Sequence record: PZ019084.1
Direction: 5' to 3' (one strand)
Length of the DNA: 64,000 nucleotides
Source of the DNA: a phage
Part shown: positions 27,653 to 29,732 of the stretch, in pieces
How positions within the stretch are numbered: position 1 is the first letter of the stretch
How the letters are laid out: each line of letters opens with the position of its first letter
Translations under genes and position numbers: made by a program
The notes under the pieces: generated by a model
Told to the model about the DNA's origin: nothing
Databases searched by the model: none
What the model saw: the letters and a program-made list of their open reading frames with translations, nothing else

Positions 27653-27958
27653 TTATCCTTGAACGAACTTGTAAGGCATGTTTGTAATATCTATGCAAGA
27701 CGCAATAATTCCAAGAGATGATTCTACTTTTTGTTTAACATTTGATGAAACAAATGATGCAAAGTCAACTCTGTCTTCTATTTCAATATCACCTGTCATT
27801 GCAACTACTTCACCAGTTTCCATTAGACGGTCACCGTCATAAATGACTGATTCGGTGAGTTCTTCCGTAGTCATAACTTCAGCTTGAATGAGTTTTGTAT
27901 TATTAGATGTTGTTCCGTCATTATTAGAAGCATCAGTTATTTTATTAACTTTGACCAA
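27653..27958 (-). CDS. C-terminal fragment of the second Alt paralogue in a shifted frame (about 100 aa)
   Basis: LVKVNKITDA...SVIYDGDRLMETGEV aligns to the C-terminal tail of the intact copy (ILLKINKVSTY...SVYDGDHLMETGEV); overlaps the 595-aa ORF by 14 nt; starts at TTG. Confidence 0.5.
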   Translation of the reverse strand: MVKVNKITDASNNDGTTSNNTKLIQAEVMTTEELTESVIYDGDRLMETGEVVAMTGDIEIEDRVDFASFVSSNVKQKVESSLGIIASCIDITNMPYKFVQG

Positions 27959-29732
27959 TAACTTCAGCTTCTGTTGCTATTCCGAGACTTCCTGGATATA
28001 CAACATTAACTTTATGAGCTCCATCAATTGCCCATCCTATTTGAACTTTAACGTATTCAGGATTTTCTTTATACGCTCTTATTTCGTTTGGATTAATAGT
28101 TATTCCTTCTTCATTTTTATCAACTGTTAATTCATTACGAGCTTCTGGTTCTAAAAGACCAATACCAGCATGTGTAATTCCAAAACGTCCAAAAATGATA
28201 GGAGTTAAAGAAGTAGATACAAAATTTCTGAAATAGAACACTTTATTTTTAACTAGTGCTTCGTATATAGGAGCAGTCATACTTTGAGCACGATAAACTG
28301 TAATGCCTTCTGGTATACGGTCACCATTTTCAAAAGCTGAATCTAAGTTATTTATAGCAGATTCAATTTCTTTTTCACTCATTACATCATATCGTTCTGG
28401 ATTGTAGCGTCCTAAAAGAAGATTATTGATGTCAGTATATCCTGAACCACAATACTCTCTAATGCCGCGCTTTTGTGATGGAGTATATTTAGAACCATCA
28501 CGGGCAATAGTAATATCAATCATTGGACCTGCACCAATTCCAGAAAAGCTATAAATCATTCGTTTGAGGAATTTAGTTTTTGCTGCTTTCCAGGAATTTT
28601 TAGTTATTTCTTCCCAGACTTCATCTGGCTGTCCTTTACGGGTTTTATTATGTTTATCAAGCCAAGTATCTTTATATTCTTCAAAGAATTTATTAATAGC
28701 TGCTGCATACTTCTCTAAACATTTTATTGAAGTAGTTGGTTCATTTTTAATCGCATTAAGAATTACATCTTTAATTTTTTCAGAAACTTCATTAACCTCA
28801 CTTTTTGAAAAGAATTTATAATCATAGTGAAGTTCATCTGCAGTTCCTTCGGCAATAATTTTTGCTGCCTTAGTTTTAGAAGCTAGTGAATTAATTCCAA
28901 GTTTCATTTCTTCCGCTTCGGGAATTAAAGGAGCTGTGGCAGGTTTATTGAAATTAGCTGCAGTAGATTCATACTTTTGGAATAATTCACTTTCAAATCT
29001 AGAAGATTCCAATGACTGACTTTGTGCAATTGCTCTACGGGAAATTTTAACTTTAACGATTACAGCTTGGTCAGAACGTTTATCATTTTCTTGCGCAATA
29101 GATGCTGCAATTGCCTCATTTTTAGTTACTTGAGCTCCAGTATCTTTATTGATATAAACATCACCGACCTTCGATTCAACTTTAGTAAAGAGCTCGGTGC
29201 TAATTTCCGGAACTCCTGGAATGTCTTCTAATGATACATTTTTGCGATGTATAAGAATATATGCGTACTTTTTATCGTAATCCCAGAGTTCCTTAAGAAG
29301 GACGTATCTGCCACCTGAACGACTACGGATAAGTCTATCAGCAATAACTTGAATTTGTCGAGCTTGACCAGCAGTTTTAGACTTAAGAATACGAAGCATG
29401 CAGGCATCAATTTTATACTGGCGCATCGTCTGCATTGCAACAGTAAAAACTGAATTGATATAATTAATTGGGCTTGGACCGAGACCTTTTAATTTAGCAA
29501 TTGAACCTTTAGCAGTTAATGTAAAAGGAACAATATGCATCATTTTATCGCCCATCTTTAAATCGCGATTAGTATCACCTCCAGATGTATAGGTACATAA
29601 ACGAAAGCCTGGTTGTTCAATTGCGTCATCAACATGAACTGAAAAAATTTGCGGTATTTTCTTCTTTGGATTTAAGTTTGTAATCGGAAGAGTAGTATCT
29701 TCGTCAAATAATTCTGTAATAAGTTCCATCAT
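27945..29732 (-). CDS. second Alt-family ADP-ribosyltransferase paralogue, N-terminal and catalytic part (595 aa), ends by frameshift right after E-x-E
   Basis: N-terminus near-identical to the 685-aa copy; YRAQ / VSTSL / EAEVI motifs; frame stops as EAEVIGQS*. Confidence 0.7.
   Translation of the reverse strand: MMELITELFDEDTTLPITNLNPKKKIPQIFSVHVDDAIEQPGFRLCTYTSGGDTNRDLKMGDKMMHIVPFTLTAKGSIAKLKGLGPSPINYINSVFTVAMQTMRQYKIDACMLRILKSKTAGQARQIQVIADRLIRSRSGGRYVLLKELWDYDKKYAYILIHRKNVSLEDIPGVPEISTELFTKVESKVGDVYINKDTGAQVTKNEAIAASIAQENDKRSDQAVIVKVKISRRAIAQSQSLESSRFESELFQKYESTAANFNKPATAPLIPEAEEMKLGINSLASKTKAAKIIAEGTADELHYDYKFFSKSEVNEVSEKIKDVILNAIKNEPTTSIKCLEKYAAAINKFFEEYKDTWLDKHNKTRKGQPDEVWEEITKNSWKAAKTKFLKRMIYSFSGIGAGPMIDITIARDGSKYTPSQKRGIREYCGSGYTDINNLLLGRYNPERYDVMSEKEIESAINNLDSAFENGDRIPEGITVYRAQSMTAPIYEALVKNKVFYFRNFVSTSLTPIIFGRFGITHAGIGLLEPEARNELTVDKNEEGITINPNEIRAYKENPEYVKVQIGWAIDGAHKVNVVYPGSLGIATEAEVIGQS

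Follow-up and report, generated by a model that had tools for sequence, protein, structure and literature searches.

A 17-nucleotide deletion directly after the catalytic E-x-E motif shifts the reading frame of alt in a T4-like phage

A split alt gene next to an intact paralogue

The 64-kilobase (kb) stretch of DNA analysed here (sequence record PZ019084.1, 64,000 nucleotides, hereafter the window) comes from a Tequatrovirus, a T4-like phage. Its minus strand carries two Alt-family ADP-ribosyltransferase genes, alt and alt.-2, arranged head to tail and flanked by gene 30 (DNA ligase)/alt.1 on one side and alt.-3/gene 54 on the other. These are the usual tandem pair of late genes for capsid-packaged, injected arginine ADP-ribosyltransferases. 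The upstream gene of the pair, alt (27653–29732), consists of an open reading frame (ORF) of 594/595 codons and a 101-codon tail that is out of frame with it. What has happened to this gene? The original prediction, made from the letters of the window, had left three options, namely that the effector had recently been inactivated or truncated, that an indel had arisen in sequencing, or that the gene was recoded. Comparison with related phages shows that the lesion is a 17-nucleotide (nt) deletion directly after the catalytic E-x-E motif, which shifts the alt frame. We consider it probable that a real 17-nt deletion has turned this known, non-essential gene into a pseudogene, or a truncated allele, that is private to the strain. 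The first of the three options is thus retained, in the form of a private deletion, while recoding, being unconserved and lacking a motif, is discarded, and a sequencing indel is disfavoured. The frames themselves are laid out as had been proposed:

27945..29732, minus strand: truncated alt ORF, orthologue of T4 alt; 595 codons when the first ATG is taken as start, 594 with the MELITE start (29729)
27956..27958, minus strand: deletion junction; 17 nt TCTACCACGCGGATTGA absent relative to all relatives, placement ambiguous by 1 nt
27653..27976, minus strand: out-of-frame 3' alt remnant, shifted by +1 against the upstream ORF; open from 27976
27653..27958, minus strand: 101-codon ORF within this remnant; TTG start at 27958, 14-nt overlap with the truncated alt ORF
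25592..27649, minus strand: intact alt.-2 paralogue, 685 amino acids (aa), with a full ADP-ribosyltransferase (ART) domain; start 3 nt past the alt stop

A 17-nt gap accounts for the shift of frame

The alt region is 97–98% identical to hundreds of Tequatrovirus genomes, and the best matches extend over 2318 nt for a query of 2301 nt. Alignment with phages ime09 and ECO07P1 showed a single clean 17-nt gap in the window alt, flanked on either side by almost identical sequence. The blastn gap list for the comparison with ECP2301, the closest relative, likewise records a 17-nt deletion in alt. In the relatives, these 17 nt specify I-L-P-R-G-L and supply the first base of Met597, right after E587-A-E589-V. 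When they are re-inserted into the window sequence, a single 697-codon ORF results that is identical to the Alt of ime09 at 693 of 697 positions. This agrees with the annotation of the relatives, which have one 697-aa Alt followed by a 685-aa Alt-like protein. In the junction alignment with other T-even phages, which had been suggested as a check, the lesion is thus a deletion of 17 nt and not a single-base indel.

The consequence of the shift can be read directly from the two frames. Translation of the upstream ORF stops five codons past E589, owing to the deletion; the ORF ends in GIATEAEVIGQS (...ATEAEVIGQS), followed by TAA TAA. It retains the N-terminal domain, R480, S505-T-S507 and E587-A-E589, after which only V-I-G-Q-S precedes the stop. 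The 101-codon ORF reads (M)VKVNKITDA...SVIYDGDRLMETGEV...PYKFVQG. This tail (27653..27958) is 98% identical to residues 596–697 of the intact ECP2301 Alt, and in a PHROGs scan it matches positions 578–674 of 674 in phrog_802. The 3' remnant encodes the final beta-hairpin predicted in the ART domain together with the Alt C-terminal tail, including YDGDRLMETGEV. Its likeness to the tail of the intact paralogue, on which the idea of a split gene had been built, proved significant in BLASTP (E=1e-12, 33% identity over 98 aa). The gap was also considered as a product of slipped mispairing between direct repeats; the junction shows only 1 nt of microhomology and no mechanistic signature.

The deletion is private to one strain

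A 91-nt query centred on the deletion was compared with 50,697 phage records, and 490 of them matched. None of the at least 352 records that cover 80% or more of this query shares the deletion; they all align at 84.3%, which equals 91/108 columns, and so retain the 17 nt. The junction string was not found in IMG/VR, in the GTDB genome collection or in the JGI metagenomes, and exact-protein look-ups among about 15 billion proteins did not find the truncated Alt protein. The intact 697-aa Alt, for its part, is the representative of a cluster with 641 member sequences. The deletion is private to one strain.

Two 101-aa database proteins (P0151 and P0152) were considered as independent split tails and rejected. 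The ENA contigs from which they derive still carry the 17 nt, and both ORFs begin at the internal Met597 on short, low-coverage contigs, as expected of gene-calling by-products.

As a separate observation, PHROGs holds a family of C-terminal Alt fragments of about 117 aa (phrog_23966), which matches the alt tail with E=6e-49. The T4 remnants alt.-1 and alt.-2 likewise have families of their own (phrog_23015 and phrog_15247). Since these three families exist, fragmented alt genes are annotated in other phage genomes as well.

The broken gene corresponds to canonical T4 alt

Which of the two paralogues is canonical T4 alt had been left open, and the split copy had been called the second, distal one. 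In transcription it is the upstream copy. It lies directly downstream of alt.1 and gene 30, the position held by T4 alt, and the gene order gene 30 – alt.1 – alt – alt.-2 – alt.-3 – gene 54 is kept, with gene 54 in the opposite orientation. Identity to T4 Alt is 98–100% over the first 240 aa and about 90% in the C-terminal tail. Because of this N-terminal identity and the synteny, the broken gene is the orthologue of canonical T4 alt and not a second copy, which answers the question. The central region (residues 240–600) is only 23–67% identical to the T4 allele. It matches the 697-aa allele of ime09, RB-series phages and T2 (X69893), and is a different, widespread allele in a mosaic gene. T4 Alt itself (gpAlt, NAD+--arginine ADP-ribosyltransferase; UniProt P12726, NP_049811) has its position, its MELITE leader and its R / S-T-S / E-x-E motifs in common with the window alt, but only the latter is truncated at 594 aa by the private 17-nt deletion.

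The downstream gene (25592–27649) is the alt.-2, or 'Alt-like RNA polymerase ADP-ribosyltransferase', of Tequatroviruses. Its product shares 41% identity with T4 Alt and 98.7% with the ECP2301 counterpart, and the paralogue is full length in 402 of the 500 matching phage records, among them T2 and T6. T4 is different. Its ORFs alt.-1 and alt.-2 (NC_000866 4034–4460, minus strand) are remnants of a full-length alt.-2 paralogue such as that at 25532–27660 of the window: all that is left of it in T4 is the first ~350–356 nt, at 97% identity apart from a 1-nt indel, and the final 80 nt, about 1.69 kb having been deleted. T4 alt is intact. If the deletion in the window is real, the window phage (alt broken, alt.-2 intact) and T4 (alt intact, alt.-2 decayed) therefore represent reciprocal losses, which would fit a partial redundancy between the injected enzymes. 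The tandem duplication of alt has been described before (Nolan et al. 2006, PMC1524935) and is also mentioned in the T4 RefSeq record.

The two window proteins had been described as nearly identical at their N-termini. This holds for the first nine residues, which are identical, but not for the region as a whole, where identity is 62–77% per 60-aa block over the first 240 aa. The MELITE-LFD leader is present in both proteins; gp21 cleavage motifs have the form L/I-x-E. A capsid-processing leader common to Alt and Alt.-2, as had been suggested, would fit both the common MELITE motif and the published processing by gp21 at the N-terminus of T4 Alt (PMC9026906), the one protein of this kind whose processing and packaging are known.

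The window alt opens with two ATG codons in tandem (MMELITE, 29729–29732, minus strand), and relatives are annotated from the second. The N-terminal propeptide of Alt is 7 residues long (PMC9026906); with the first ATG as start, cleavage behind MMELITE would match this length.

Neighbouring features that bear on synteny and expression are as follows:

29782..29970, minus strand: alt.1, 62 aa, Pfam Phage_blade; synteny marker upstream
25241..25531, minus strand: alt.-3, 96 aa, DUF5498; synteny marker downstream
29753..29760, minus strand: TATAAATA, T4 late-promoter-type box, 21–24 nt 5' of the alt start

The box occurs 18 times in the window, against 8.7 occurrences expected, and the copy in front of alt may be the alt late promoter. 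The alt.-2 gene has its own AAGGA Shine-Dalgarno sequence, 7 nt 5' of its ATG.

The truncated product lacks the end of its ART domain

T4 Alt uses NAD (nicotinamide adenine dinucleotide) to ADP-ribosylate host proteins, among them RNA polymerase alpha (PMC10468400, PMC9026906). It is non-essential, is present at about 40 copies per head, is injected with the DNA and undergoes gp21 processing at the N-terminus as well as the C-terminus (PMC9026906). Exchange of the second glutamate of its motif (E577A) abolishes activity (PMC11404850). In the window, both genes match the Pfam family PF03496 (ADPrib_exo_Tox), the truncated alt ORF with E=5.4e-29 (101 bits) and alt.-2 with E=7.2e-20, and the 'Alt-like' profile phrog_802 of PHROGs is matched with E=7e-227. 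As had been noted from the translations, the R, S-T-S and E-A-E motifs follow each other in the same order in both, as R480/S505-T-S507/E587-A-E589 in alt and as R482/S507-T-S/E587-A-E589-VILPRG in alt.-2; the arginine lies within xYR in each case (480/482).

The two proteins differ in what follows E-x-E. The truncated alt ORF covers positions 2–162 of the 196 in the PF03496 profile, compared with 2–195 (129 bits) for the intact Alt proteins of ime09 and T4. In alt.-2, coverage is 13–191 of 196 and the segment past E-x-E is present. A complete catalytic domain is hence found in alt.-2 and not in the 594-aa ORF, whose product is without the ~34 terminal positions of that domain, namely the strands past E-x-E, and without the C-terminal tail of about 70 aa. 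The lost residues I591, L592, P593, R594 and G595 are invariant in 12 Alt and Alt.-2 sequences. In ARTs of the R-S-E class, the strands after E-x-E are part of the core beta-sandwich, and for this reason the 594-aa Alt product is most likely catalytically dead. Since gp21 processes both termini of Alt, the lost C-terminal tail would include a normally processed region; L-M-E-T-G-E, conserved in Alt and Alt.-2, is a candidate gp21 site.

Alt shares its catalytic domain family and the order of its motifs with the clostridial R-S-E ADP-ribosyltransferases CdtA, iota toxin Ia and CPILE-a (PF03496), a distant homology (E ~4e-4 over 70 aa). The segment past E-x-E, EVILPRGLMVKVNKI..., aligns with EVLLNHGSKFKINKI... 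of CdtA, near the C-terminal end of the solved CdtA chain. Unlike these toxins, Alt has an extra N-terminal region of about 380 aa and a C-terminal tail linked to capsid incorporation and processing. A search of the PDB found no solved structure of Alt, the matches being the distant CdtA and Ia only.

A real deletion is the best explanation of the locus

Altogether, these data are best explained by an alt gene that has been disrupted in one strain. The deletion removes the invariant I-L-P-R-G-L and shifts the frame, leading to an early stop. The shortened 594-aa Alt keeps its N-terminal domain and three of the ART motifs and would lose its activity. The 101-codon downstream frame would be a non-functional remnant, neither a separate gene nor a recoded extension. 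The loss would be tolerated because alt is non-essential and an intact alt.-2 lies next door, the latter possibly acting through redundancy. In annotation, the locus should accordingly appear as a single alt gene that is disrupted, be it pseudogene or truncated allele, and neither as two genes nor as a recoding site. The alt gene, its tandem paralogue and the dispensability of alt are all known already, and a private frameshifting deletion in such a gene is a routine event. If the deletion is real, the phage provides a natural setting where Alt.-2, an unstudied enzyme, is the only capsid-borne ADP-ribosyltransferase of the Alt family.

Several points weigh against this explanation. The loss of activity is deduced from domain coverage and homology. 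An AlphaFold2 model of the intact Alt, built from a 12-sequence alignment, has a mean predicted local distance difference test (pLDDT) score of 54.8 and falls below 50 across the ART domain, so that the strands it places at 589–592, 596–607 and 613–624 lend weak support to the loss of such strands. The truncated Alt could still be packaged, with a non-catalytic role. The assembled sequence alone was examined, so that a local mis-assembly is possible, and nothing else among the searched records and collections carries the allele.

The last two points lead to the most serious rival, in which the alt of the phage is intact, with 697 codons, and the gap stems from assembly or consensus calling. 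The perfect ORF obtained on restoring the 17 nt is also what an artefact would produce. Nevertheless, the quality of the window speaks against it. When the 83 annotated ECP2301 proteins were mapped to the 64 kb, 77 were recovered as one full-length frame. The exceptions were Hoc, gp30.8, gp37, two small ORFs that are absent, and alt, which is the sole gene split between frames. The DNA alignment with ECP2301 contains other frame-changing indels, all of them intergenic or in compensated pairs; the window has no uncompensated intragenic indel elsewhere, and the assembly is otherwise clean. Because alt alone is split, a general pattern of sequencing error is unlikely. Moreover, the loss of 17 nt from non-repetitive, non-homopolymer sequence is atypical of read or consensus errors, and a real null allele is plausible in a gene that is non-essential (PMC9026906). 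We therefore regard an artefact as improbable, though it deserves more weight than any of the other alternatives, and infer that the deletion is biological.

A further alternative accepts the deletion as real and holds that it was selected and not neutral, making the strain a natural alt-null, alt.-2-only T-even phage. We think this quite unlikely. Were it so, the loss of Alt activity was perhaps favoured on the isolation host, for instance through escape from a defence that responds to this activity or through redundancy with Alt.-2, and the dead 594-aa fragment may still be packaged as a component of the head core. The window phage and T4 would then form a reciprocal natural pair for working out the role of Alt.-2.

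Programmed +1 (or -2) ribosomal frameshifting at 27945–27976, which would fuse the frames into a near-full-length Alt, is very improbable. It draws some support from the ~30-nt overlap of the frames and from the authentic Alt tail encoded by the second. Yet the two-frame arrangement is not conserved, every relative having one continuous ORF, and no known +1 or -2 slippery motif is found in GCA ACA GAA GCU GAA GUU AUU GGU CAA AGU UAA. The local RNA fold is no better than that of shuffled sequence (z=-0.31; 76 of 200 shuffles fold as well), and the joined product would still be without the invariant I591-L-P-R-G595. With no slippery site, stimulatory structure or conservation, recoding was rejected. 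It is just as hard to credit that the 594-aa product and a 101-aa fragment with its own start (the TTG at 27958) associate into an active enzyme: the 101-codon frame is open and its start coincides with Met597 of the intact Alt, and phrog_23966 shows that such fragments are annotated elsewhere, but the start is a TTG preceded by a weak purine-rich stretch with no clear Shine-Dalgarno sequence, the invariant ILPRG strand is in neither piece, and the similar 101-aa ORFs in databases are gene-calling by-products on contigs that retain the 17 nt.

Other differences between the window and ECP2301

Apart from the disrupted alt, the comparison with ECP2301 brought out several further differences in the window. 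At 44415–45206 (minus strand), between nrdB and nrdA, lies an ORF for a 263-aa D12-class N6-adenine DNA methyltransferase (PF02086, E=8e-24, with a DPPY motif). ECP2301 has no corresponding sequence at this site, where the window has about 850 nt extra, and the ORF appears to be a Dam-like accessory gene inserted in an intergenic site.

Two further genes also differ. The 472-aa Hoc of ECP2301 aligns partially with the Hoc-like head decoration gene at 13307–14434 (minus strand), in overlapping or repeated matches of 68–78% identity, which suggests another number or type of immunoglobulin-like repeats. The gp30.8 homologue at 34163–34510 (minus strand; Phage_30_8, E=6e-41) is 39% identical to that of ECP2301 in surroundings that are about 97% identical, which points to a locally replaced allele and hence mosaicism.

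Among the tail fibre genes, the gp37-like distal long-tail-fibre protein (60267–63998, plus strand), which runs off the end of the window, is 69% identical to ECP2301, and the gp36-like protein (59593–60255, plus strand) is 84% identical. Both are host-range determinants that are divergent from the closest relatives. Finally, two small ECP2301 ORFs have no counterpart in the window (at 48934–49340 and ~50176–50185). A 68-aa ORF is missing between td and frd, and a 119-aa ORF on the downstream side of frd. Identity to ECP2301 falls to 81% in td itself, and the td/frd region is another mosaic patch.

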